NCBI RefSeq assembly: GCF_050920415.1
Contig: NZ_CP169309.1
Strand: one strand, 5' to 3'
DNA: 64,000 bases
Origin: Escherichia coli
GTDB taxonomy: Bacteria > Pseudomonadota > Gammaproteobacteria > Enterobacterales > Enterobacteriaceae
Shown: piece by piece, positions 11,052-45,901 of the stretch
Layout of the letters: each line of letters begins with the position of its first letter
Numbering within the stretch: position 1 is the stretch's first letter
Notes under the pieces: generated by a model
The model's input: only the letters and a program-made list of their open reading frames with translations
Told to the model about the DNA's origin: nothing
Databases searched by the model: none
Translations under genes and position numbers: made by a program

Positions 11052-12086
11052 TCAATATTTGATATACGCGTCCTGCACTTTGCCGCCAGCGATAGCCAAC
11101 ATTGCTTTCTGCGCGAATTCTTCGGGAATGCCTTGGGCTATCAGATCTGCGATTACTCTGCTGTTAACGGTACGGCGATGCTCTTTATCTGCAGCTCGGC
11201 GCGATTCTTCGTCGGCGATACGCTTCTGTTCGTCAAGGCGGGCTTTTTCTGCCGCCTCTTGGCGTCGGCGTTCCTCGGCAACGGCTTCTTCTTTTTCGCG
11301 TCGTGCACGCTGCTCTGCTTCAATTCGCTGACGTTCTGCTACTTCAGCACGTGCTTTTTCTTCCGCCGCCAGGCGTTCCGCAGCCTCAATTTCAGCTTTC
11401 GCTTTTTGTTCAGCTTCGAGCCTGGCCTGTTCAGCAGCTTCCCGGCGGATATTCTCTTCTCGCTCAATGCGCGCTTTTTCCTCCGCTTCTTTGCGAAGTC
11501 GCTCCAGCTCAGCGGCTTCATGCTCGCGTTTTTGAGCTACTGCGAGTGATTCTTCCAGTTTCTGGATGGTTGAATCCTTGGCTACTCCAGCTTCTGCTGC
11601 GTACTCCTGCCAACTTTCATCAAGTGCTACTGATTTAGCCTCTTGAATTCGTTCCTGAATATCAGATGATGGCAAGTAGTTTCCGGAGAGATCGATCACG
11701 TCAGCTAGTGCTCGCAAATTTGTCAGGCGTTGTTGCAGTGCTTCAGTGCGTAATTTCTCCGCATTTTCCCACTCGGTGAGTGGGCGGCGTACTTCATCAC
11801 GAAGCCGATCGCATTCGGTTACGAAGCGTCGTAACTCTGCTTCAACTACTTTCGGCTGTTCTTTCAGGCGTTTCAGATAATCACGTCCTGGTTTTTCTAC
11901 CGCTGTTTTACTTCTTGAAACCTTCGCAGCCAGAGATGCAATGCGCTTTCTGCCTTTGTCTGTGCTAATGTCAGGCACTTCATTAACACCTTCACGGATC
12001 TGCTCGAGAAACTTTTCCAGCCCTTTTTCAACGTAAATTCTTGGTGCCATGTCTGGTGTGATTTCGATGATTGATAATTCACTCAT
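11052..12086 (-). CDS. coiled-coil phage protein (E/A/R/K-rich C-terminal half)
   Basis: 344 aa, long EAxxRAxxE repeats; function unknown. Confidence 0.6.
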   Translation of the reverse strand: MSELSIIEITPDMAPRIYVEKGLEKFLEQIREGVNEVPDISTDKGRKRIASLAAKVSRSKTAVEKPGRDYLKRLKEQPKVVEAELRRFVTECDRLRDEVRRPLTEWENAEKLRTEALQQRLTNLRALADVIDLSGNYLPSSDIQERIQEAKSVALDESWQEYAAEAGVAKDSTIQKLEESLAVAQKREHEAAELERLRKEAEEKARIEREENIRREAAEQARLEAEQKAKAEIEAAERLAAEEKARAEVAERQRIEAEQRARREKEEAVAEERRRQEAAEKARLDEQKRIADEESRRAADKEHRRTVNSRVIADLIAQGIPEEFAQKAMLAIAGGKVQDAYIKY

Positions 12087-12397: not shown

Positions 12398-12982
12398 TTA
12401 TTGTTTGTTTTTTTCGTTCTGGTTGATGACAAATTCAATGTAACTTTCGATCTTTGCCTTCTCTGTTTCAGGTAACAATGCGTAGCGCGAGCGGTCATAG
12501 TTGATAGTTGCAGGGTCATGCGGATGAATCAGTAGTTCATATCCGTGACGCCCGAATGCAGATGCAACATTCTCCAGGGTGGAAATGGAAACGCTGACCT
12601 CATTGTTTAACAGGCGGCTGATTGTCACCTGGGCGACGCCGGATGCGCGGTGAAGTTTTCCCTGTGTTGAAAGGTCGCGGCTTTCGCTCATCCAGCGTTC
12701 CAGGTTGTGAGCCGCCAGCTGACCAATGTCGCTTGGGCCGACAGGCTGAAAACCTTCCTGAGAAAGCGAGCGATCGATATCAAGCCAGTTACGGGGTTTA
12801 TTGGCGGCAGCTTCAATTTTTCGCGCAACCTGGTCGCCGATAACCTTCTTGCCAAGAGCCCAGCGGTTTACCAGATTTGCCTGAGTTCCAAGTTTTTCTG
12901 CCATCCGCGTCTGAACACCATTGAATTCACGGTCGATCAAGTCGTTGAGATTTTGCCTGCGGACGTCCTGGATACTTTTCAT
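12398..12982 (-). CDS. phage repressor, tandem HTH_XRE domains (CI-like, no peptidase domain)
   Basis: 194 aa; HTH at GVQTRMAEKLGTQANLVNRW and at HRASGVAQVTISRLLNNEVSVSISTLENVA; divergent from Cro-like gene. Confidence 0.65.
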   Translation of the reverse strand: MKSIQDVRRQNLNDLIDREFNGVQTRMAEKLGTQANLVNRWALGKKVIGDQVARKIEAAANKPRNWLDIDRSLSQEGFQPVGPSDIGQLAAHNLERWMSESRDLSTQGKLHRASGVAQVTISRLLNNEVSVSISTLENVASAFGRHGYELLIHPHDPATINYDRSRYALLPETEKAKIESYIEFVINQNEKNKQ

Positions 12983-13517: not shown

Positions 13518-13718
13518 ATGGAAATCATTACACGTATTGATGCCGCAAAGCGCGGACTTAAACGCTACTACACCGGAAAACCATGTAAGCACGGACATGA
13601 CAGTGAACGCTGGGTTTACAACGGACACTGTGTTGAGTGCACCATGGAATCAAACCGTCGCATTAGGGCAGAGATTAAGCAGATCATGATTAATTCCTCC
13701 CCACAACATTCAAGCTGA
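13518..13718 (+). CDS. small zinc-finger protein
   Basis: 66 aa from internal ATG; KPCKHGHDSERWVYNGHCVEC Cys/His cluster. Confidence 0.45.
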   Translation: MEIITRIDAAKRGLKRYYTGKPCKHGHDSERWVYNGHCVECTMESNRRIRAEIKQIMINSSPQHSS

Positions 13719-13733
13719 TAGCGGAGATTAATC

Positions 13734-14549
13734 ATGAGCAGACATGCAACAGATTGGGCCTGGGAGACAGATCCAGGCAGCTCATCATTAAAGCTCATAC
13801 TGCTCTCGATGGCTGACAGAGCCGATGAATATAACCTCTGCTACCCCAGCATAGAACGCCTCGTTAAAGACACTTGCCTGAATAAAAAAACCGTGCAGGC
13901 CGGGCTTATATCGCTCATGAAAATGGGGCTTATTTCAGATACCGGAGAGAGAAAGGGAGCGACGAAAAGAGTGCGGGTTTTCTCTCTTAATATAACCAAA
14001 AACGGGAACATTAAAGGCAACCGGGAAGGGAGTAATGAACCCGAAAACGGAAATGTTACCGAAAACGGGAATATACCCAAAAACGGGATGTTGAATGATC
14101 CCAAAAACGGGATGTTGAATGATCCCAAAAACGGGATCCAGAACCAGTCATATAACCAGTCATTTAACCAAGAGAGGGGGAGCAGGACAAAAACCGGGGA
14201 TTCTGTGCCTCATGACCCCGGCGCAAACAACGCCGTGATGAATAACTTTGTTCCTCCTGGTGGGCCAGGGCAATTAGGCAAATTTGTCATGCATGAACAA
14301 TGGCAACCATCAGATGACTTTCTTCGGAAAAGCTCATTGCAGGGAATCTACCTGGACAGTCTGCCAACGGCACAGGAACTTGCAGAGTTCAGAATTTACT
14401 GGATGGCTGAGGGTAAGGCATACCATCAGGCACAGTGGGAGCAGAAGCTGGCAAGGCGGCTGCAGATTAGCAGACAGAAGCAATCAACATTACCTGATAA
14501 CAACGTTCCGCACTGGAACAGCCCTGAAGCGTGGGAGGATTTCTTGTGA
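13734..14549 (+). CDS. replication initiator (lambda O-like role) with internal iterons
   Basis: 271 aa; N-terminal HTH-like domain; repeat-encoded ENGN/PKNG peptide stretch; directly upstream of P-like gene. Confidence 0.6.
   Translation: MSRHATDWAWETDPGSSSLKLILLSMADRADEYNLCYPSIERLVKDTCLNKKTVQAGLISLMKMGLISDTGERKGATKRVRVFSLNITKNGNIKGNREGSNEPENGNVTENGNIPKNGMLNDPKNGMLNDPKNGIQNQSYNQSFNQERGSRTKTGDSVPHDPGANNAVMNNFVPPGGPGQLGKFVMHEQWQPSDDFLRKSSLQGIYLDSLPTAQELAEFRIYWMAEGKAYHQAQWEQKLARRLQISRQKQSTLPDNNVPHWNSPEAWEDFL
13998..14141. repeat. iteron array (AAAACGGGA core, ~6 copies incl. two exact 24-bp tandem units at 14076-14099 and 14100-14123); putative ori
   Basis: Direct repeats read in sequence inside initiator gene. 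Confidence 0.6.
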
Positions 14550-21634: not shown

Positions 21635-21724
21635 TAATTCGTGCGTTAAATGTCAACTGTCTACGATAAATAAATCATATGTGGTTAAATTGGTAATAAT
21701 TTAATTGCGTACGGAGTCATTGAT

Positions 21725-35223: not shown

Positions 35224-35786
35224 ATTAAATGAGACAGGAATGTATACAAGCGGTCCAGCAGGCGGCGCAGCGCACGTTAACGGCGCGAGAAATACAGAAC
35301 ATTGAAGACCGCATTTATCGCAATATGCGCTCCATTGCTCGTGATGACCCTATGTCGTGGCGACAACTTTCCGAGTCAGAGCGGCTGTATCGTGCAGCAC
35401 AATTGGCATCTGAAGAATTACAGCGAGAAGCGGCATTAAAGAAACGTCGTGTGGCTCTCACTATAGCTGCACGTCAGAGATTGGATAAATTTATCAATAG
35501 CTATCAAGGGGCTGATGGGAAACTTGGCGCTCTTAACCGTACTATAGCTTTTAATGCAGACGGTAAATCTAATTTCCTCTCTGTTGAATCCAGAACAAAA
35601 GCCACCCGTGATTATGCATTGAGTCAATTGCAGGAGGCATTCGAAGCAGTTGATCCTCGCTTTTTTGGTCTGTTTGAAGATGAAGCGGGCGTACGTAGAC
35701 TGGCCCCCTGAATCTCCAGACAACCAGTATCACTTAAATAAGTGATAGTCTTAATACTAGTTTTTAGACTAGTCATTGGAGAACAG

Positions 35787-36152
35787 ATGATTGATGTCTT
35801 AGGGCCGGAGAAACGCAGACGGCGTACCACACAGGAAAAGATCGCAATTGTTCAGCAGAGCTTTGAACCGGGGATGACGGTCTCCCTCGTTGCCCGGCAA
35901 CATGGTGTAGCAGCCAGCCAGTTATTTCTCTGGCGTAAGCAATACCAGGAAGGAAGTCTTACTGCTGTCGCCGCCGGAGAACAGGTTGTTCCTGCCTCTG
36001 AACTTGCTGCCGCCATGAAGCAGATTAAAGAACTCCAGCGCCTGCTCGGCAAGAAAACGATGGAAAATGAACTCCTCAAAGAAGCCGTTGAATATGGACG
36101 GGCAAAAAAGTGGATAGCGCACGCGCCCTTATTGCCCGGGGATGGGGAGTAA
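35787..36152 (+). CDS. insC: IS2 transposase OrfA
   Basis: [26 protein letters not shown]... matches recalled InsC. Confidence 0.9.
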
Positions 36153-37015
36153 GCTTAGTCAGCCGTTGTCTCCGGGTGTCGCGTGCGCAGTTGCACGTCA
36201 TTCTCAGACGAACCGATGACTGGATGGATGGCCGCCGCAGTCGTCACACTGATGATACGGATGTGCTTCTCCGTATACACCATGTTATCGGAGAGCTGCC
36301 CACGTATGGTTATCGTCGGGTATGGGCGCTGCTTCGCAGACAGGCAGAACTTGATGGTATGCCTGCGATCAATGCCAAACGTGTTTACCGGATCATGCGC
36401 CAGAATGCGCTGTTGCTTGAGCGAAAACCTGCTGTACCGCCATCGAAACGGGCACATACAGGCAGAGTGGCCGTGAAAGAAAGCAATCAGCGATGGTGCT
36501 CTGACGGGTTCGAGTTCTGCTGTGATAACGGAGAGAGACTGCGTGTCACGTTCGCGCTGGACTGCTGTGATCGTGAGGCACTGCACTGGGCGGTGACTAC
36601 TGGCGGCTTCAACAGTGAAACAGTACAGGACGTCATGCTGGGAGCGGTGGAACGCCGCTTCGGCAACGATCTTCCGTCGTCTCCAGTGGAGTGGCTGACG
36701 GATAATGGTTCATGCTACCGGGCTAATGAAACACGCCAGTTCGCCCGGATGTTGGGACTTGAACCGAAGAACACGGCGGTGCGGAGTCCGGAGAGTAACG
36801 GAATAGCAGAGAGCTTCGTGAAAACGATAAAGCGTGACTACATCAGTATCATGCCCAAACCAGACGGGTTAACGGCAGCAAAGAACCTTGCAGAGGCGTT
36901 CGAGCATTATAACGAATGGCATCCGCATAGTGCGCTGGGTTATCGCTCGCCACGGGAATATCTGCGGCAGCGGGCTTGTAATGGGTTAAGTGATAACAGA
37001 TGTCTGGAAATATAG
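36110..37015 (+). CDS. insD: IS2 transposase OrfB
   Basis: 301-aa ORF, DDE catalytic domain; matches recalled InsD. Confidence 0.9.
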
Positions 37016-39048
37016 GGGCAAATCCAGTACGTGACCTGGTATATGAAATGCGGGGGCAAAATACTGGCAATGCTAAAGCAAGAAAAGGTGCTAAGGCGTG
37101 GAGAGAAGTTACAGAGCTGCTGCGCCGCCGGTTTAATGATGCTGGTGGGGACATTGGCTATCTCGAAAACTGGGGGATCCCTCAACATCATTCTATGGAA
37201 AAGGTTGGGGCGGTATCAAAGGATAAGTGGGTTAGCGATGTTATAGGTAAGCTGGATCGCAAATATTATATCCGAGCCGATGGACAACTGATGAACGATG
37301 CCGAGTTGTCTGCATTTCTTGGAGAGGCTTATAACACGATCGCTACTGGTGGGCTGAATAAGCTTACTGATACCGGAATGCGAATTTCCGGCGCACGTGC
37401 TAACCGTGGTAATGCATCACGACAGATACATTTCAAAGATGCAGATTCCTATCTGCAATATCAGCAACTTTATGGCGATCGCTCTCTATGGGAAATCATG
37501 GTCGGTCACCTGGAAGGTATCAGTAAAGATATTGCACTGGTGGAAACATATGGCCCAAACCCCGATCATGTTTTCCGCTCTCTTCTTGATCAGGTGAAGG
37601 CAGAAACGGCAACAGCTAACCCGAGTAAAACCGGTAAAGTCGAGCGGCTGGCGAACAACACAGAGAATCTGTACAACTTTATTTCCGGAAAGACACAGCC
37701 TGTAGCAAATCCGCACATCGCGCGATGGTCTGACAATATCCGCAACTGGCTGGTTGCCAGCAGACTCGGATCCGCGTTGCTGTCATCGTTCTCTGATCTT
37801 GGAACCATGTATCTGTCTGCGAAGGTGACCAACCTTCCAATGAACCAGTTATTCCGCAACCAGCTTGAAGCTATGGACCCAACGAACCGTACTGAGCTTG
37901 CGCGGGCGCGCCGCGCTGGTCTGGCGATGGAATCTCTACTTGGCAGCGTTAACCGCTGGGCGATGGATAATATGGGGCCGTCAGTGTCTCGTTGGGCTGC
38001 AACGGCGGTAATGCGTGCCAGTGGGCTTACAGCATGGTCAGATGCGCACAAGCGCGCCTATGGCGTAACCATGATGGGAAGCCTGGGAGAAGTAGTGTCA
38101 CGGACACCAGACCTTCGTAGCCTCGATGACTCTGATTTTCGTATCCTGAAAAGCAAAGGGATTACTGACACAGACTGGAGCGTATGGAAGCTGGCGCAAC
38201 AGGAGGACTGGGGGAACGGTAATAATACGATGCTGACACCGGAAAGCATTATGCGTATCCCTGATTCAGCAGTTAAACATCTTGGTGAGCCTGAACGCGT
38301 GAAATTTGAGGCAATGCGTAAACTGCTCGGTGCCGTAACTGAAGAAGTTGATATGGCTGTTATTACACCGGGAGCACGTGAGCAACTGATAACCGGTTCT
38401 GGTATTCAGCGTGGAACATGGAAAGGTGAATTAACGAGAAGTGTTTTCCTGTTTAAATCGTTCCCTATCTCGGTGGTTATGCGTCACTGGTCACGCGCTA
38501 TGGGTATGCCGTCTGCTGGTGGGCGTGCGGCATATATTGCGACGTTTATTGCCAGCACGACCATTCTTGGCGCTTTGTCTCAGCAACTTAACGACCTTGC
38601 GTCTGGTCGTAATCATCGCGAGATGACAGGAGAAGATGCTGCTAAATTTTGGCTTGGTGCTCTACTGAAAGGTGGTGGTCTTGGCCTTTACGGTGACTTT
38701 TTATTGTCAGATCACACTAGGTACGGAAGCGGCGCGCTGGCGTCGATGCTTGGCCCGGTAGCTGGTCTGGTTGATGACGTAGTGAAGATTGCTCAGGGCA
38801 TACCGTTAAATGCTGTGGAAGGGAAGAATGAGCAGACTGGTGGTGATCTGGTTAAGCTGGGGAAGGGGCTGATGCCAGGTGCGAATCTCTGGTACTTGAA
38901 GGCGGCTCTCGATCACATGATCTTTAACCAGATGCAGGAGTATTTTTCACCAGGCTATTTGCGTAAAATGGAGCAACGTTCGAAGAAAGAGTTTAACCAG
39001 ACATACTGGTGGCGACCACAGGATGTCACTCCGCAATAAGGATGAGAA

Positions 39049-39189
39049 ATGATTGCTTTTATTCTTGTTGTGTTTGCGCTTGTTGCACTTGGCGTTATGA
39101 ACCGTAAATGTATCATTGACGATGGCGAATTTGCTGTTGCAGTTATTTTGATATTATCTGGTGTAGCAGGATACATAGGCTTGTCATAA
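39049..39189 (+). CDS. small hydrophobic membrane protein (46 aa)
   Basis: MIAFILVVFALVALGV...; AAGGATGAG RBS; not in ORF track. Confidence 0.3.
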   Translation: MIAFILVVFALVALGVMNRKCIIDDGEFAVAVILILSGVAGYIGLS

Positions 39190-39195
39190 CGTGAG

Positions 39196-39209
39196 TGTGA
39201 CATGTCACA
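39196..39209. repeat. palindrome TGTGACATGTCACA, copy 3
   Basis: Perfect 14-bp palindrome immediately before terminator. Confidence 0.6.
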
Positions 39210-39233
39210 GGCCGCTTTCGCGGCCTTTTCTTT
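39210..39233 (+). terminator. rho-independent terminator after virion-protein operon
   Basis: ggccgc-tttc-gcggcc then TTTTCTTT. Confidence 0.7.
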
Positions 39234-39580: not shown

Positions 39581-39684
39581 TATCTGCTCACATTAACACT
39601 CTTTCCATCCATATATGGTTTTTCAGGTAATAGAATAACCAGATATGCGGCGCAACGGGTGCTGCGACTATCTGGAGATTTAAC

Positions 39685-41940
39685 ATGACGGTCTCAACCG
39701 AAGTTGACCACAACGAATACACAGGCAATGGCGTTACGACTTCATTCCCTTATACCTTTAGGGTTTTCAAGGAATCTGATCTGGTAGTGCAGGTGGTTGA
39801 CCTTGACGAAAATATCGCTGTGCTGGCTCTGGATACTGATTACACTGTCACTGGGGCTGGTGGATATAACGGCGGTAATGTAATTCTGTCGAAGGCGTTA
39901 GCTAACGGTTACCAGATTTCTATATCACGAGAGCTCCCGGTTACGCAGGAAACTGATTTGCGTAATCAGGGGAAGTTCTTTGCAGAAGTGCATGAGGATG
40001 CTTTTGATAAGCTAACGATGCTGATCCAGCAGGTTCGAAGTTGGTTTAGCTTGGCGCTGCGCAAGCCGTCATTCGTGGCAAATTATTATAACGCGCTGAA
40101 CAACTATATTCGAAACCTGAAAGACCCGGTAAACCCGCAGGATGCATCCACAAAGAATTATGTGGACAGTACGGTTTTATCGAATATCGACCATACAATC
40201 CGTGTTCCTGATTCTTATATCGATCCGCTGCCACCTCTCGCTCAACTTGAAGGAAGCATAATCGGCATCGCCAACGGTAAGCCCGTTCCGTTCCCTGTGC
40301 CTTCAGGAACGGCGGCTGACGTATTCAACCAGTTGGCCAGCAGCGCTGACGGGAAAGGTGATGCGCTGATAACAGTGAAGCAGCCTTACCAGGGGGCAAT
40401 TTCTCTTTCGCAGCATATAAAAAATGCACAAGCCATTAGTGTTGTTGATTTTGGAGCGACAATTGATGGAACGCTTCACCCTTTAAGCGAGATATTTTCA
40501 ACACTATCAGCTGCTCAGATGGTATATCCATTTGTTTCATCTCTATCTCAATCTGTTGATTATGCTGCGCTTCAGTCCGCATGTAACACGGGAAAAACAG
40601 TGCTTATTCCAAAGGGAACTGGTTACTATAATTCAACTATTTTTCTGAAAAACTCCGTTAGGATTGTTGGAGAGGGAACTGATACAATAAATAGAGCGCA
40701 ATCATTTATGTCTATTGTTGGTAATATTTCAGCCTTTGCTTTAGATCAAGGTGATTCCCTATCGACAAAAATGATTCAGATTTTTATTGATGGTCTTTAT
40801 ATTTTCTATGATCCAGGAACCACACCAACGAATCCTGAAAATGATGGTGGGAAAATTGCATTTAATTTCTACTCGACAATTCCAAATTCAACAAGCTTGG
40901 AAATGTCTGAAATTAAAAACTGTACAGTTCATGGTGCATGGTCATGCTTTAATGATCAGACTGGCACATACTTGACAAAACTTACGAATGTGTGGGCCAG
41001 AAACTGCCATAATGGTTTTACAAAAGGAACTGGCACTACCATTCTGATGGAAAGATGTTATACATCTGGATGTATATCACCATATCAGTTTGGTTCTGTC
41101 TTTGCAGCTACAATGATTAACTGTGCCATGGATGGATCAAATATTTCGTTAAACGCAGGTTCGCTTGGTGGGGCTGGCGTTCATGTTCTTAACACACATA
41201 GTTTTAACATTATTGGTTTTGATGCGGAGGGTAACACCATCTCTACAGATGGTTATGGAGAGGCAGCACTATTCCATTTCGAAAATAGTAGTGGTGGCAT
41301 TTCTGGCCTGACTGCACATCAGAACAGCATGCGAAGTGTTGCGCCAAGTGATGCTGGTGTAGTTTCCTACATCAGGGCGTCAGGTAGCAGCGATGTTAAA
41401 ATTGAGTCATCAGAAGATGATTTATCTGACACCAACACAGTTGCATATACTGGGTCTGGGTATCCCATCATGCTACATGCAACTGACACAGCTAAAATAA
41501 GCGTCTTTAATAGCAGATTCAGGGCGACTACCACTGGTACCCCTGTCTTAAGTACGCTAAGTACTGGTGATGTATCATGGTATGACTGCCCTAAAAAAAC
41601 AGGACTTATCGTAGATGGTTATTCACAAATAACATCTAAGGAAGGATTGCAAACATCATGCTTCTATACCAGTAAAGGCTCTACTGCTGTTGCTGAAAAT
41701 ACTCCGACAACACTTTTCTCTCTACCAGATTCGCAAGGTACTTACATTATTAGCGTATGGGTGGCTGGAAGCGGAGAAAATTACGCATCTACACAACTGG
41801 CAATGTATGATGGAGATAAGCTAATTCTTGTTGCGTTAAAAATAGCAGCATTTCTTAGTTTTTCAGCAACAGGGAGAATTGTAACCATTACAAGCCAGGT
41901 GGCAGGCACTTTAAACTGGACTTACACTAAAATAGGTTGA
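39685..41940 (+). CDS. tail fibre/tailspike with T7 gp17-like N-terminal adaptor domain
   Basis: 751 aa; N-terminal ...YTGNGVTTSFPYTFRVFKESDLVV...DTDYTV pattern; Gly/Ser/Thr-rich C-terminal region. Confidence 0.7.
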   Translation: MTVSTEVDHNEYTGNGVTTSFPYTFRVFKESDLVVQVVDLDENIAVLALDTDYTVTGAGGYNGGNVILSKALANGYQISISRELPVTQETDLRNQGKFFAEVHEDAFDKLTMLIQQVRSWFSLALRKPSFVANYYNALNNYIRNLKDPVNPQDASTKNYVDSTVLSNIDHTIRVPDSYIDPLPPLAQLEGSIIGIANGKPVPFPVPSGTAADVFNQLASSADGKGDALITVKQPYQGAISLSQHIKNAQAISVVDFGATIDGTLHPLSEIFSTLSAAQMVYPFVSSLSQSVDYAALQSACNTGKTVLIPKGTGYYNSTIFLKNSVRIVGEGTDTINRAQSFMSIVGNISAFALDQGDSLSTKMIQIFIDGLYIFYDPGTTPTNPENDGGKIAFNFYSTIPNSTSLEMSEIKNCTVHGAWSCFNDQTGTYLTKLTNVWARNCHNGFTKGTGTTILMERCYTSGCISPYQFGSVFAATMINCAMDGSNISLNAGSLGGAGVHVLNTHSFNIIGFDAEGNTISTDGYGEAALFHFENSSGGISGLTAHQNSMRSVAPSDAGVVSYIRASGSSDVKIESSEDDLSDTNTVAYTGSGYPIMLHATDTAKISVFNSRFRATTTGTPVLSTLSTGDVSWYDCPKKTGLIVDGYSQITSKEGLQTSCFYTSKGSTAVAENTPTTLFSLPDSQGTYIISVWVAGSGENYASTQLAMYDGDKLILVALKIAAFLSFSATGRIVTITSQVAGTLNWTYTKIG

Positions 41941-41950
41941 TGTTATGCGT

Positions 41951-41967
41951 GGGGAGCAATGCTCCCC
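41951..41967. terminator. hairpin between convergent tail-fibre and acyltransferase genes
   Basis: ggggagc-aat-gctcccc; no clear T-tract on either strand. Confidence 0.3.
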
Positions 41968-41975
41968 ATCATCAA

Positions 41976-43835
41976 TTAAAAAATAAATGGCTTGTCATTT
42001 TTTAATTTTTTCCCAAACTCCCTTGAGCCTTCTAGAGTGAAATGACTATTATCAAAGTAAAGATAATCACCTTTAGTAGAAAGGATGTCACAATTCATTG
42101 ACTTTCCGCACTGCTCGGCAAGCGTATCTATGTATTTATACGAATGCTGGTTGCTACCAAGATAGCCTTTTATCGTATTGTTAATTTCAACTCTACTATT
42201 GTCATAATACTTTTTAGAGTATTTATTTATCCCATCAACTGTGTTTACGCCAGATTTAAAAGCAGACTTAATTATTTCCATTGGCTGTGCCGTAAACTTC
42301 ATCTTAGGCCCAAATACAATAACTTCTCCTTTAGTCCTCTCCTGTATTTTGCCTATAGAGTAAAGCATCCCGAACAGATCGCCAACGCCATAATCATCAT
42401 GAAGGATTATAATGTTAGCTTCAGCTATGGCTGGAGATGAGATTACGTCATTGAATATTTTTTTGCACTTTTCTACATAGGGCATGTCGTTTGGTGTATA
42501 ACCAAAGTTTGAACATAAGTTTGTAGTTCTTATATAAGTTATATCACCCTTCATCCCATTTTCAGTAAGTGCATAAGTCAGATCTATGCCATGAGAATTA
42601 CCGATTATTACTATTTTTTTGTCACCTGTCTTCGGTACAGGGTGAGGCTTGTCTCCATCAACCCAATACCTGTTCATTTGTTCTTTTAGCTGTTCGGACG
42701 TCATTGTGGCAAACGAAAACCTTGATGGAATTCCAGATAGCAATAGTACAGCGAAGCACAAACCAACTACACCACCTACAGGTAGCACGATTGAAGTTAA
42801 TTCATTCAAGGACCTGCCGTTTTTAAATTTTGAAAGTGCCTTTCTTGAAGGGTTTTCAATTAAATAAAATGATGCGGCACCAATAAGAATTGATAAGGCA
42901 ACACCTGATACTGTATAAACCATATCATCCATCTTATTCATTGACATATATACAACTATGGGCCAGTGAACCAGATATACCGAGTATGAAATTTTCCCAA
43001 CCCATTGAGATAATGCATTATCAAGTAATAGGTTATCTTTACATCCAAGATAAATGACAAAGAAAGTAGAAACGACTGGTATTAAGGCAAGATACCCAGG
43101 CCACTTCATTAAGCTGTTAAGCAAGACTATCCCCGATACTGCAAAGGCTATGGCAATCCATCTAAATACAGCAGTGCGTTTTGAATTTTGTATAGTAGGA
43201 AGAAGGTAGGCAAGGCCGCCAGCCAGCATCTCCCAAGCTCTGCTTGACAGAAGATAAAATGCAGCGCCCTGATTATTATAAGAAAGATACACTGAGGCAG
43301 TAAATGATATAATTGCAAGGATGGCAACAACATACCTTATATGCTTAGCGCCCAATAGCTTTGCAATCACCATCATTATGATTGGATATACCATGTAAAA
43401 CTGCCACTCTACAGAAAGCGACCATGTATGAAGAAGCCATTTCTGCTTTGATGCAGTATCAAAATAATCAATGCTATGGTAATACTCAACGTTTGAGAAA
43501 AATAAAAGGCTACTTCTTACGTGTTGAGCCAGGTATTCATATTCAGAAGGTAAAAGAATGAAGTAACCAACTATCAGAACAGCAACTGAAACTACAGTTA
43601 AAGCAGGTATAATTCTTCTTGCCCTATCAAGATAAAATCCTAACAGTGAAAAGTTTCCATTAGATATCTTTGTGTAAATTATTCCAGTCATCAGATACCC
43701 TGATATAACAAAGAATATATCTACGCCTGAAAATCCACCAGAGAACCCTTTGACTCCGAAGTGATAAAGGACAACTGCCATAACAGCAATAGCCCTAAGC
43801 CCGCCTATATCTGTTCTGTATTTTAAAGAAGACAT
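41976..43835 (-). CDS. O-antigen acyltransferase (acyltransferase-3 membrane domain + C-terminal SGNH-like domain, OafA-like)
   Basis: 619 aa; N-terminal multi-TM with ...AVVLYHF...DIFFVISGYL...; lysogenic-conversion candidate. Confidence 0.75.
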   Translation of the reverse strand: MSSLKYRTDIGGLRAIAVMAVVLYHFGVKGFSGGFSGVDIFFVISGYLMTGIIYTKISNGNFSLLGFYLDRARRIIPALTVVSVAVLIVGYFILLPSEYEYLAQHVRSSLLFFSNVEYYHSIDYFDTASKQKWLLHTWSLSVEWQFYMVYPIIMMVIAKLLGAKHIRYVVAILAIISFTASVYLSYNNQGAAFYLLSSRAWEMLAGGLAYLLPTIQNSKRTAVFRWIAIAFAVSGIVLLNSLMKWPGYLALIPVVSTFFVIYLGCKDNLLLDNALSQWVGKISYSVYLVHWPIVVYMSMNKMDDMVYTVSGVALSILIGAASFYLIENPSRKALSKFKNGRSLNELTSIVLPVGGVVGLCFAVLLLSGIPSRFSFATMTSEQLKEQMNRYWVDGDKPHPVPKTGDKKIVIIGNSHGIDLTYALTENGMKGDITYIRTTNLCSNFGYTPNDMPYVEKCKKIFNDVISSPAIAEANIIILHDDYGVGDLFGMLYSIGKIQERTKGEVIVFGPKMKFTAQPMEIIKSAFKSGVNTVDGINKYSKKYYDNSRVEINNTIKGYLGSNQHSYKYIDTLAEQCGKSMNCDILSTKGDYLYFDNSHFTLEGSREFGKKLKNDKPFIF

Positions 43836-43871
43836 AATCGCTATCGTTTTGAGTAAGATGCATTAATGATA

Positions 43872-43886
43872 TCACCTTTAGGGTAA
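43872..43886. promoter_or_regulatory. operator-like palindrome TCACC TTTAG GGTAA
   Basis: Divergent region between acyltransferase and lysis cassette. Confidence 0.5.
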
Positions 43887-43991
43887 TTTCGTTAAGAGTT
43901 ATCCGATCAAATTTAATCCACATATGGTTTATTGTGTATGATGAACTCACCAACTAAGGGGGTTCTTTATGCACAATAAACGGTGGTCACT

Positions 43992-44396
43992 ATGGCGCAT
44001 GTGCTGACAACAGAGTCAGTAAATCAGGGGTTAAGCCTGACTGCACTGGCGTCCGTGTTCGTTGGTATACCGCCTGAGGTGGCTTTAGGTGCTCTTGCTG
44101 GTGCGGTAATTTTTGTTACCTCAGCGGTTGAGTATCCGATAAAGCGTAGGTTGCTCCTGGCGCTCCTAAGCTTCCTCTGCGGCGTTCTCTTCTATAAAGC
44201 GACAGCTTCCATTCTGATTGGCTTTGCCAGCCTGATACCAACGATTACGCAGGACTCTTTTGAGAAGGGCATTGTGTATTCCGCCGGGGCATTCGTGTCT
44301 GCAATCGTCGCTGTTCGCATTGGCATCTGGCTGTATCACCGTTCTGAAAATCCGCGCGACATGATCCCGGGGAGAAAAGACGATGACCAGTCCTGA
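43992..44396 (+). CDS. holin-like membrane protein
   Basis: Multi-TM, first gene of lysis cassette; start 43983 (GTG) or 43992 (ATG). Confidence 0.45.
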   Translation: MAHVLTTESVNQGLSLTALASVFVGIPPEVALGALAGAVIFVTSAVEYPIKRRLLLALLSFLCGVLFYKATASILIGFASLIPTITQDSFEKGIVYSAGAFVSAIVAVRIGIWLYHRSENPRDMIPGRKDDDQS

Positions 44397-44676
44397 TCTG
44401 CTTCTCATCCTTAACGCCGCTATCTGCGGTGGCATTGCAATCCGAGTGCTTCTGTTCCGCCGTGACGGGTCACGTCACCGCTGGTGGGGTGGGTGGCTCG
44501 CCTATCTGCTGATCGTCGTGGCAGCCAGCGTACCTATCCGGACTTTCTACGGGTACTACGTCAGCGCCGACTGGTCAGAAGTCATCATCAAAGCCGTGTT
44601 CCTGGCTGCGCTCATCAAGACAAAAGGGAACGTGGTGCAAATTTTCAAGATAACGAGGTCCCAGCATGGACATTAA
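44383..44676 (+). CDS. lysis-associated membrane protein (holin/antiholin candidate)
   Basis: 97 aa with TM segments, overlaps neighbours. Confidence 0.4.
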   Translation: MTSPDLLLILNAAICGGIAIRVLLFRRDGSRHRWWGGWLAYLLIVVAASVPIRTFYGYYVSADWSEVIIKAVFLAALIKTKGNVVQIFKITRSQHGH

Positions 44677-45295
44677 CCAATTCCAGCGTGCAGCTGGCAT
44701 CAGTGAGGTGCTGGCCGCGCGCTGGTACCTGCATATCACCGCAGCCATGAAAGAGTTTGGCATCGAGCAACCGCTGCACCAGGCGATGTTTATCGCGCAG
44801 GTGGGGCATGAGTCTACTGGTTTCACCCGGCTGCAGGAAAACTTCAACTACAGCGTTGCAGGGCTCGCAGGATTCGTCCGCGCCGGGCGACTTACTCAGG
44901 GTCAGGCCAACGCGCTGGGCCGCCGTGCTGGCGAGCCATCGTTACCGCTGGAGCGCCAGCGCGCGATCGCCAATCTGGCGTACAGCAAACGCATGGGGAA
45001 CAATGCCCCTGGTGATGGCTGGAATTACCGTGGCCGCGGACTTATCCAGATTACCGGTTTGAATAACTATCGTGATTGCGGAAACGTCCTGAAAGTGGAC
45101 CTGCTGGAGAATCCTGAACTGTTGGCGCAGGACGAATATGCGGCTCGTAGCGCGGCGTGGTTCTTCGCCAGCAAAGGATGCATGAAGTATACCGGCGATA
45201 TTGCACGTGTAACTCTGATTATCAATGGTGGCCGGAACGGCATCGACGACCGGCGCGCGCGGTACATCACTGCCAGTAAGGTGCTGGCGGTATGA
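44666..45295 (+). CDS. endolysin, glycoside hydrolase family 19-like
   Basis: FIAQVGHESTGF and GRGLIQITG signatures. Confidence 0.75.
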   Translation: MDINQFQRAAGISEVLAARWYLHITAAMKEFGIEQPLHQAMFIAQVGHESTGFTRLQENFNYSVAGLAGFVRAGRLTQGQANALGRRAGEPSLPLERQRAIANLAYSKRMGNNAPGDGWNYRGRGLIQITGLNNYRDCGNVLKVDLLENPELLAQDEYAARSAAWFFASKGCMKYTGDIARVTLIINGGRNGIDDRRARYITASKVLAV

Positions 45296-45774
45296 TCTGG
45301 GCATTCGCAAAAGCATACTGGAAACAGTTGCTTATCGTGGTGATGCTTGCTGTTCTGGTCATATCGGGAATTGTTTCCTGGAATGTACACGGCAGTCGTC
45401 AGTACGATGCCGGGTATGCGCAGGCGAAGGAAGACCGCAAAGCTGAAGATGAGATAGTTCGTCAGCACTACGAACAGGAGAAATCGATCAATGAACGTGA
45501 AGCGCAGCAGAGGATCGACCAGGCGCGCAATGATGCTCTTGATGCTGCCGCTCGCGCTGGCCGGTTGCAGCAACAACTCTTTGCCATCCGTGAGCAGCTC
45601 AGGCAGTATAACGCCATTGTCGGCGCTGGGACGTCAGCCGCAGACACCGGAGTTTTGCTTGCCGACGTGCTCAGCAAATCTCTCGAGAGAAACAGACAAC
45701 TGGCAGAGTATGCTGACCGGGCAGCCGAAGCCGGAAGAGTCTGCGAAAAACAATACGACACCCTGACCAGATAG
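45292..45774 (+). CDS. i-spanin (Rz-like)
   Basis: N-terminal TM then coiled coil; ATGA overlap with endolysin. Confidence 0.6.
   Translation: MIWAFAKAYWKQLLIVVMLAVLVISGIVSWNVHGSRQYDAGYAQAKEDRKAEDEIVRQHYEQEKSINEREAQQRIDQARNDALDAAARAGRLQQQLFAIREQLRQYNAIVGAGTSAADTGVLLADVLSKSLERNRQLAEYADRAAEAGRVCEKQYDTLTR
45530..45766 (+). CDS. o-spanin (Rz1-like) lipoprotein embedded in +1 frame
   Basis: MMLLMLPLALAGC lipobox, Pro-rich; entirely inside Rz-like gene. Confidence 0.5.
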   Translation: MMLLMLPLALAGCSNNSLPSVSSSGSITPLSALGRQPQTPEFCLPTCSANLSRETDNWQSMLTGQPKPEESAKNNTTP

Positions 45775-45884: not shown

Positions 45885-45901
45885 ATTGAGTGGGAATGAT
45901 T
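45885..45901. repeat. attR core (ATTGAGTGGGAATGATT)
   Basis: Exact copy of 6047-6063. Confidence 0.65.

Follow-up and report, generated by a model that had tools for sequence, protein, structure and literature searches.

In the 64,000-nucleotide stretch of Escherichia coli contig NZ_CP169309.1 analyzed here (the window), a minus-strand gene at 41976..43835 encodes a 619-aa protein that we consider, with a probability of roughly 70%, to be a membrane enzyme, an O-acetyltransferase of the OafA/OafB type with fused AT3 and SGNH domains, that a phiV10-like prophage carries for lysogenic conversion and that acetylates the O-antigen and excludes phages carrying the cognate tail spike. In this mechanism the ten-helix AT3 domain would accept the acetyl group of a donor in the cytoplasm (acetyl-CoA, probably) via R14/H25 and the RxxR motif, and would hand it across the inner membrane, where a periplasmic SGNH domain (Ser414-Asp595-His598) would move it to an O-antigen sugar. 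The beta-helix tail spike encoded by the adjacent gene would then no longer bind or cleave the acetylated O-antigen, and we propose that spike-bearing phages would therefore be excluded and the serotype altered. The acetyl donor, as well as expression of the gene in the lysogen, is what we infer from these features, and by analogy with tested systems the acceptor would be the O-antigen, possibly a rhamnose-rich antigen of the O2/O50 type, and the window gene would bring about the serotype change and the exclusion of the cognate phage. Exclusion of related phages by O-antigen acetylation is a familiar strategy among phages and not an unusual one; prophage O-antigen acetylases encoded beside the tail spike and giving exclusion have been textbook examples since Sf6, epsilon15, P22 and phiV10.

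The acetyltransferase gene and its protein

The preliminary description of this DNA had proposed an antisense 619-aa acyltransferase with a C-terminal SGNH-like domain, and had suggested a domain search as a check. Both domains were found above their curated Pfam cut-offs. Acyl_transf_3 (PF01757) covers aa 10-319 (42879..43808, minus strand; E 3.6e-31, 108.9 bits, cut-off 31), and the SGNH domain PF19040, which Pfam describes as ‘fused to AT3 domains’, covers aa 402-611 (42003..42632, minus strand; E 8.4e-13, 49 bits, cut-off 27). PHROG_6705, ‘O-antigen acetylase’, covers the protein over its full length (E 9e-179). The ORF begins with ATG and has a weak Shine-Dalgarno sequence. Some gene callers place the start at M19 instead, giving 601 aa; we favor M1 because it keeps the conserved R14. 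A 5' lesion in the 601-aa copies was ruled out, as two of them (L022 and L023) match the window at 100% identity, and only the start that the caller chose differs.

The residues expected of an active enzyme are present. Among 73 homologues, H25, G33-D39, F41-G46, R71, R74, E327, G412, S414, D595 and H598 show no variation, and R14 is kept in at least 90%. R14 and H25 form the R/K-X10-H motif of TMH1, and the membrane domain also contains G33GFSGVD39 (GG-F/Y-xGV-D, of the fused type), F41FVISG46 (FFxISG) and R71ARR74 (RxxR). The invariant SGNH triad consists of S414 in block I and D595 and H598 in block V, although block I reads GNS where GDS is canonical. Mutagenesis of OafA and OafB has defined the residues essential in those enzymes, including OafA R14 and H25 in TMH1 (PMC7448272), and all of them are also found in the window protein.

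The AF2 model (pLDDT 93.2) has 11 transmembrane helices and an alpha/beta periplasmic domain. Its secondary structure includes a helix at aa 342-365 (42741..42812, minus strand), the predicted 11th transmembrane helix, followed by a linker helix at 380-393 and the alpha/beta domain. The 11th helix is predicted to put the SGNH domain in the periplasm, the architecture described for AT3-SGNH enzymes (PMC9558356). The top PDB fold match was 6SE1, the periplasmic domain of the LPS-acetyltransferase OafB (E 3.7e-5, TM 0.61, 247 columns). The link to 6SE1 comes from the fold search, as a sequence search against PDB chains gave no match at E<0.01.

There is a close likeness to Salmonella OafB/BTP1 GtrC, a rhamnose O-acetyltransferase, and to OafA, which have the same two domains and 11th transmembrane helix and share with the window protein the R/K-X10-H, GG-F-xGV-D, FFxISG and RxxR motifs and the Ser-Asp-His triad. 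OafB/BTP1 GtrC is also prophage-borne beside a tail spike. It differs from the window protein in its sequence (about 30% identity) and in the GDS of block I, as well as in host genus, phage type and perhaps acceptor. Compared with its counterpart in FT130, the acetylase gene has 13 synonymous and 4 non-synonymous codon differences, and by this measure it is under purifying selection.

The prophage and its exchangeable cassette

The gene is part of a Uetakevirus prophage that resembles phiV10 and is inserted at guaA. The attL core, ATTGAGTGGGAATGATT, is at the 3' end of guaA (6047..6063, plus strand) and the same core recurs as attR at 45885..45901 (plus strand); the attP core sequence was taken from PMC9782041. 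The structural genes are 98% identical to those of phiV10, and the HTH_3 repressor (12398..12982, minus strand) is identical at 194/194 positions. The prophage is probably defective because an IS2-like insertion (35697..37026, plus strand) splits a virion structural protein gene.

In this epsilon15-like prophage the acetyltransferase gene occupies the slot that has the tail-spike gene on one side and the holin/endolysin cassette on the other. The 751-aa tail spike (39685..41940, plus strand) joins a conserved Uetakevirus N-terminal anchor to a cassette-specific C-terminal region that forms a parallel beta-helix of the Sf6/LKA1/phi297/HK620 type, with a beta-helix start in common with the Sf6 spike. 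The spike is of the polysaccharide-degrading (depolymerase) type and is no esterase. An acyltransferase gene immediately after a tail fibre gene had been described here; the adjacency holds, the two genes being convergent and 35 bp apart, but the neighbor is a beta-helix tail spike and not a fibre. Between the two stop codons is a GC-rich hairpin (41950..41968; dG -16.8 and -15.4 kcal/mol, z about -3.6) that is a possible bidirectional terminator without a U-tract, although a terminator scan gave no call at this site. On its other side the gene is divergent from the lysis cassette, as had been noted; that cassette (43992..45774, plus strand) encodes two holins, a GH19 endolysin and a DUF2514 spanin, and no rightward sigma-70 promoter was called in the intergenic region upstream of it.

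Homology breakpoints against phiV10 (40166 and 43862), together with the GC profile, delimit a variable low-GC (36-43%) cassette at 40167..43861 that comprises the receptor-binding region of the tail spike and the acetyltransferase gene. In a related contig, L016, identity is 87.5% for the acetylase and 83% for the C-terminus of the adjacent spike, and sequence comparison indicates that the two exchange together as one unit. The pairing is not obligatory, because a P22-like prophage has a 94%-identical receptor-binding domain with a reverse-transcriptase/AAA module beside the spike and the acetylase absent; this rules out that the domain always comes with the acetylase. The cassette boundaries make this a compact case of temperate podoviruses swapping a receptor-binding domain jointly with the matching receptor-modifying enzyme.

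O-antigen-modifying genes occur in the same slot in phiV10, epsilon15, PAS61 and five E. coli prophages, and the slot contents in relatives include phiV10 oac, epsilon15 gp21/22, gtrABC modules and other acyltransferases. The likeness to serotype-converting O-antigen acetylases that had been pointed out is well founded. In phiV10 it is oac that fills this slot, and it points the same way. The phiV10 and window prophages have the same backbone, down to the repressor and the guaA att core, and their conversion genes have in common the minus strand and an operator-type site about 40 bp upstream. The annotation of the phiV10 Oac protein (YP_512280) assigns it acetylation of the host O-antigen and a role in superinfection immunity (PMC11854483, PMC9558356); it acetylates O157 and stops phiV10 binding (PMC11854483). 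Among the Uetakevirus conversion modules, phiV10 Oac is the only one for which exclusion of the cognate phage has been demonstrated. It is, however, a 338-aa, AT3-only protein with 23% identity to the window protein over the aligned part, whereas the window protein has SGNH fused to its AT3 domain and another spike receptor-binding domain as its partner, so that it presumably acts on a different O-antigen.

Other known systems are related in part. Epsilon15 gp21/gp22 have the slot and orientation of the window gene but are a Wzy-like beta-polymerase and a polymerase inhibitor rather than an acetyltransferase. The ‘O-antigen acetylase’ of vB_EcoP_PAS61 (618 aa, O146 host) is an AT3-SGNH protein in the same Uetakevirus slot; unlike the window gene, it shares its strand with the lysis genes and is without an operator-type site, and it resembles the window protein in the AT3 half only (45% over aa 6-303). 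Shigella phage Sf6 Oac and OacB-D are prophage O-antigen acetylases of the AT3 family, and they block the endorhamnosidase spike of the cognate phage; in contrast to the window gene, they are AT3-only and belong to a P22-like backbone.

The operator-type site at the cassette junction

A TTACC-type palindrome had been reported in the promoter region of the gene, and one is indeed present: TCACCTTTAGGGTAA at 43872..43886 (TCACC-N5-GGTAA), 37 bp upstream of the acetyltransferase start and one mismatch from TTACC-N5-GGTAA. The motif occurs 16 times in the window, versus 1.0 expected, and 13 of the 16 sites are inside the prophage. Its identity as an operator follows the GenBank annotation of epsilon15, in which sites equal to the window motif are labeled ‘repressor/lysogeny’; the HTH_3 repressor is the presumed binder. 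The gene had been described as lying under the same operator motif. The motif is real. The site belongs to the conserved backbone and not to the moron: it lies on the backbone side of the 43861/43862 breakpoint, at a distance of about 10 bp, and marks the junction of cassette and backbone.

The predicted sigma-70 promoter of the acetyltransferase (43866..43895, minus strand) consists of TTAACG, an 18-nt spacer and the extended -10 TGATATCAT. The palindrome is within the spacer and overlaps the predicted extended -10. An equivalent of the latter (TGnTAnnnT) was found in seven of eight related loci, and an operator-type site is kept at the junction in all eight loci with a divergent conversion module (in one of them with two mismatches); the epsilon15 site at this junction is a perfect TTACC-N5-GGTAA. 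The TCACC half-site is a weaker match to the consensus, yet it creates the TG of the extended -10, and this variant is present in 6/7 E. coli loci, the window included. The backbone, at whose conserved site the cassette docks, contributes the -35, this repressor-type operator and the TG/TA of the predicted extended -10.

Repressor control would be paradoxical for a conversion gene, which has to be expressed in the lysogen. A doubtful but conceivable reading is that cassettes dock at the operator itself, as part of a plug-and-play site of expression. Each O-antigen-modifying cassette that arrives (acetylases, gtrABC) would complete the -10 begun by the backbone. The T-to-C change would weaken repressor binding while making the TG, the repressor would tune or positively couple conversion genes across this E. 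coli/Salmonella prophage family, and cassettes would recombine at the operator. If so, a conserved backbone promoter/operator can drive any cassette that arrives. The palindrome could equally serve a late promoter that depends on an activator and is marked by CCAYATATGGTTT.

Acceptor, exclusion and alternative explanations

The acceptor glycan cannot be deduced from the sequence of an acetyltransferase, and AT3-SGNH enzymes, among them the peptidoglycan acetylases OatA and OatB, also modify other glycans (PMC9558356). It is possible that the enzyme is active on another envelope glycan, such as peptidoglycan (as OatA is), ECA, capsule/colanic acid or the LPS core, and shifts lysozyme or phage susceptibility without O-serotype conversion. 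Identity to the O-antigen enzymes is only about 30%, and PatB was also among the fold matches. We nevertheless find this explanation unlikely. In the fold search OafB, an O-antigen enzyme, ranked first, with its extension region included in the match, the PHROG family is that of O-antigen acetylases, the slot elsewhere holds gtrABC, Wzy-like and Oac genes, and the acetylase travels with a beta-helix tail spike of the O-antigen type. We did not adopt the OatA-type peptidoglycan O-acetyltransferase class for the same kind of reason: the window protein has its AT3-SGNH architecture but not its chromosomal housekeeping context, being encoded by a prophage in a conversion slot, and the best fold match is OafB and not OatA.

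The gene might also be without effect, a silent or decaying passenger of an IS2-crippled prophage whose promoter operator keeps it off, with no current phenotype. The split virion gene, the weak Shine-Dalgarno sequence and the operator inside the promoter spacer, which could silence the gene in the lysogen, are in line with this, as are split or truncated copies of the acetylase in some other genomes and its presence in just 1 of 5,426 complete E. coli genomes. We regard it as quite improbable given the intact 619-codon ORF with all catalytic residues, the 13:4 ratio of synonymous to non-synonymous differences and the widely kept TCACC variant, which weakens the operator match. PhiV10 is, moreover, arranged alike, and infection by it is reported to modify the O157 antigen (PMC11854483). 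Very improbable, in our view, is that the phage's own spike is not shut out by the acetylation, which is instead aimed at other phages or host immunity, or makes the form of the receptor that the cognate spike needs. In one relative (L012) the tail spike paired with an AT3/SGNH acetylase has the annotation of an SGNH esterase, which suggests that recognition depends on acetyl groups in at least this case, and the P22-like prophage has the window's receptor-binding domain without the acetylase. In the tested precedents phiV10, Sf6 and BTP1, however, acetylation blocks the cognate phage (PMC9558356, PMC11854483), the window spike is of the depolymerase rather than the esterase type, and acetylase and receptor-binding domain co-vary.

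If acetylation of the O-antigen and exclusion of the cognate phage are indeed the function of the gene, the cassette would give Escherichia a source of O-antigen O-acetylation that has gone unrecorded, and the antigen may be of the O2/O50 type. It would then bear on serotyping discrepancies, on glycoconjugate-vaccine epitopes and on which phages to choose for therapeutic or detection use, the last because carriers would resist phages with a matching tail spike. O2 is an ExPEC vaccine serogroup. The single complete E. coli genome that carries the gene has an O2/O50 O-antigen cluster, the host O-antigen type being known in only one or two acetylase carriers. The difference between serogroups O2 and O50 itself has been attributed to a point mutation in fdtB (PMC7685785), and the cassette was ruled out as its cause. 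Beyond E. coli, acetylase relatives with 45-51% identity adjoin tail-spike genes in Enterobacter and Citrobacter, and a relative in Aeromonas is at the end of the tail-gene cluster of a P2-like prophage.

A membrane acyltransferase gene beside the tail spike

The 619-codon ORF called on the minus strand at 41976..43835 is convergent with the gene for a 751-aa tail spike (39685..41940) and divergent from a lysis cassette comprising two holins, a GH19 endolysin, and a spanin. A stable hairpin without a U-tract (41950-41968; -16.8 kcal/mol, z -3.6) was found between the convergent stop codons. Pfam searches assigned residues 10-319 of the product to Acyl_transf_3 (AT3; E 3.6e-31) and residues 402-611 to an SGNH family "fused to AT3 domains" (E 8.4e-13), both far over the curated cut-offs. 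The whole protein belongs to PHROGs family phrog_6705, "O-antigen acetylase", category moron (E 9e-179). The ORF layout and domain search therefore bear out the preliminary description, which had proposed an AT3 and SGNH acyltransferase opposite the spike and divergent from the lysis genes.

The protein was aligned with 72 homologues and with BTP1 GtrC (OafB; PDB 6SE1 is the structure of its C-terminal domain). It has all of the residues defined as required by mutagenesis of OafA and OafB (PMC7448272), namely R14, H25, GGFSGVD33-39, FFVISG41-46, R71xxR74, S414, D595, and H598. Positions H25, G33-D39, F41-G46, R71, R74, E327, G412, S414, D595, and H598 were invariant in the alignment, and SGNH block I reads GNS, not GDS. 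The AlphaFold model was confident (pLDDT 93.2, pTM 0.85) and comprised a membrane domain and an alpha/beta periplasmic domain, with an 11th helix and a linker helix between them. Its top match among solved structures was 6SE1, a Salmonella O-antigen acetyltransferase periplasmic domain (E 3.7e-5, target TM 0.61), followed by generic SGNH esterases and PatB. By every sequence and structure criterion, the protein is a member of the AT3-SGNH O-acetyltransferase family.

Comparison with the copy in the FT130 chromosome revealed 13 synonymous and four non-synonymous codon differences, which indicates purifying selection. Relatives in Enterobacter and Citrobacter (45-51% identity) also adjoin tail-spike genes, and an Aeromonas relative lies at the end of the tail-gene cluster of a P2-like prophage. 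Within the reach of sequence analysis, the earlier interpretation as an O-antigen acetylase is supported; that the O-antigen is the acceptor, that the gene is expressed in the lysogen, and that it excludes phages with the cognate spike are all steps that we infer. Of the 50 near-identical copies in public Escherichia genomes, several are in two pieces (156+456 aa, 288+318 aa) or shortened (233 aa); the gene has been repeatedly inactivated in some lineages.

A conversion slot and its exchangeable cassette

In phiV10, the site flanked by the tail spike and the lysis cassette holds oac on the opposite strand, annotated for host O-antigen acetylation and superinfection immunity. When cloned, this gene modified O157 and blocked phiV10 binding (PMC11854483; PMC9558356). 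The same slot contains a Wzy-like polymerase and a polymerase inhibitor in epsilon15, and a 618-aa acetylase on the forward strand in PAS61. Among our comparison loci, it holds an AT3-only acyltransferase (L008), gtrA-gtrB-gtrC (L009), gtrAB with a glycosyltransferase and a Wzy-like gene (L010), or a split AT3 plus SGNH pair adjoining a spike with an SGNH hydrolase annotation (L012), and in L011 it is empty and the tail spike is deleted. The acetylase studied here thus adds to the list of genes in this well-known conversion slot, a further case of a known kind of gene and not a new principle. It is rare, being found in one of 5,426 complete E. coli genomes (FT130, 98% identity). Its closest functional analogue is phiV10 Oac, with which it shares phage, slot, orientation, and upstream site, although Oac is AT3-only and 23% identical. 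In mechanism and structure it is closest to OafB/GtrC(BTP1), which has the same two domains and motifs at ~30% identity.

The L012 record (NZ_CP079771.1, pHL15EC-2), a 41-kb circular sequence labelled a plasmid, is a complete Uetakevirus genome. The pairing at 1139-5958 of its spike, annotated as an SGNH/GDSL hydrolase, with a split AT3 and SGNH acetylase runs counter to a simple exclusion logic.

Homology of the prophage to phiV10 stops at 40166 and restarts at 43862, and the interval, which comprises the spike from ~residue 161 onward and the acetylase gene, has a GC content of 36-43% versus 50-58% in its flanks. On L016, a metagenomic contig, an acetylase with 87.5% identity to the one here adjoins a convergent spike whose C-terminus has 83% identity, whereas more distant acetylases adjoin unrelated spikes; acetylase and spike C-terminus therefore travel together. 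In the model of the spike C-terminal region (pLDDT 81), the chain forms a right-handed parallel beta-helix, and the best matches were to O-antigen- or capsule-degrading spikes (phi297, LKA1 gp49, Sf6, HK620, and CBA120 TSP2). The pairing is not obligatory, since a 94%-identical receptor-binding domain was found on a P22-type head-binding domain with no acetylase alongside (L021, JAIQNZ010000041.1, 7001-12304). In that P22-like prophage, a reverse transcriptase (RVT_1) and an SMC/AAA ATPase, a defence-system-like pair, come after the spike in place of a conversion gene.

The operator-type site at the acetylase promoter

In the window, the motif TTACC-N5-GGTAA (up to one mismatch) was counted 16 times versus 1.0 expected. 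Thirteen sites are inside the prophage, at 6197, 12264, 12326, 13038, 13086, 13423, 15369, 15431, 18455, 18473, 21620, 39566, and 43872, and precede nearly every transcription unit, late operons included (terminase, portal, tail spike, lysis). This distribution would imply direct genome-wide repression and not control at OL/OR only. Exactly these sequences are annotated as repressor-binding sites in the epsilon15 GenBank record. The palindrome that had been noticed in the acetylase promoter region is present as TCACCTTTAGGGTAA at 43872-43886, 37 bp upstream of the ATG, and its description as the same operator motif was correct.

The motif can be read in more than one way here, since a site for simple repression would be at odds with a role in lysogenic conversion. 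The site fills the 18-nt spacer of the sole sigma-70-like promoter predicted in the region (minus strand; TTAACG, 18 nt, TATCAT), and its variant half-site TCACC, GGTGA on the minus strand, gives the -10 the TG that makes it an extended one (TGATATCAT). In a junction alignment of eight loci with a divergent conversion module, seven have an equivalent TGnTAnnnT. The site may be a deliberately weakened operator, or it may provide repressor-dependent tuning of the conversion gene. In the same alignment, whatever lay left of the site was cassette-specific, and the site itself and all sequence right of it were conserved backbone; the site is absent from PAS61, where acetylase and lysis genes run in one direction. 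The site may instead serve the rightward late/lysis promoter, which also carries a second shared element, CCAYATATGGTTT, with four matches in the window versus 0.14 expected. Copies are exact at 39609-39621 and 43918-43930 and have one mismatch at 21672-21684 (minus strand) and, in the chromosomal flank, at 54155-54167. Each of the three prophage copies precedes an operon (tail-spike, lysis, or portal) and has an operator site ~45-50 bp away; the element is a candidate late-promoter or activator site. The promoter/operator may also represent a plug-and-play docking site for conversion cassettes.

The prophage and the O-antigen of its hosts

The ~39.9-kb prophage is flanked by the 17-bp core ATTGAGTGGGAATGATT at 6047 (guaA 3' end) and 45885, which is the published attP/attB core of phiV10, epsilon15, and ZX5 (PMC9782041). 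Its structural genes are 98% identical to those of phiV10, ZX5, and PAS61 (all genus Uetakevirus), and its repressor is that of phiV10 (194/194 identical). An IS2-like element with InsC/InsD-type ORFs (35697-37026) interrupts the gene for an 824-aa virion structural protein (phiV10p20 homologue), so the prophage is probably defective; the conversion gene is intact despite this insertion. A ~1-kb phiV10 segment with p22 and the Bro-N antirepressor p23 is missing (window 39040-39232), which, together with the insertion, suggests that the prophage is no longer inducible. Downstream of the OL operators, the first gene is a 344-aa ORF at 11052-12086 (minus strand; PHROG_1376, no Pfam match, function unassigned), which stands in place of the small phiV10p39 and may be a further accessory or moron gene.

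The wzx/wzy cluster of FT130 is of the O2/O50 family, and an organism labelled E. coli O2 is the source of one near-identical spike. Together these tentatively suggest an O2/O50-type rhamnose-rich antigen as the acceptor. The difference between O2 and O50 is already accounted for by an fdtB mutation. The fdtC-like acetyltransferase of the FT130 cluster (13705-14076 of locus L020, on the FT130 chromosome) is annotated as pseudogene fragments, and the antigen of this strain may therefore be O50-like, lacking Fuc3NAc.

Elsewhere in the window, the c-di-GMP phosphodiesterase gene pdeF is interrupted by an IS3-family element (49043-50256; transposase ORFs of 108 aa and 295 aa), with its MASE1 portion on one side (47919-49040) and its EAL portion on the other (50321-51475).
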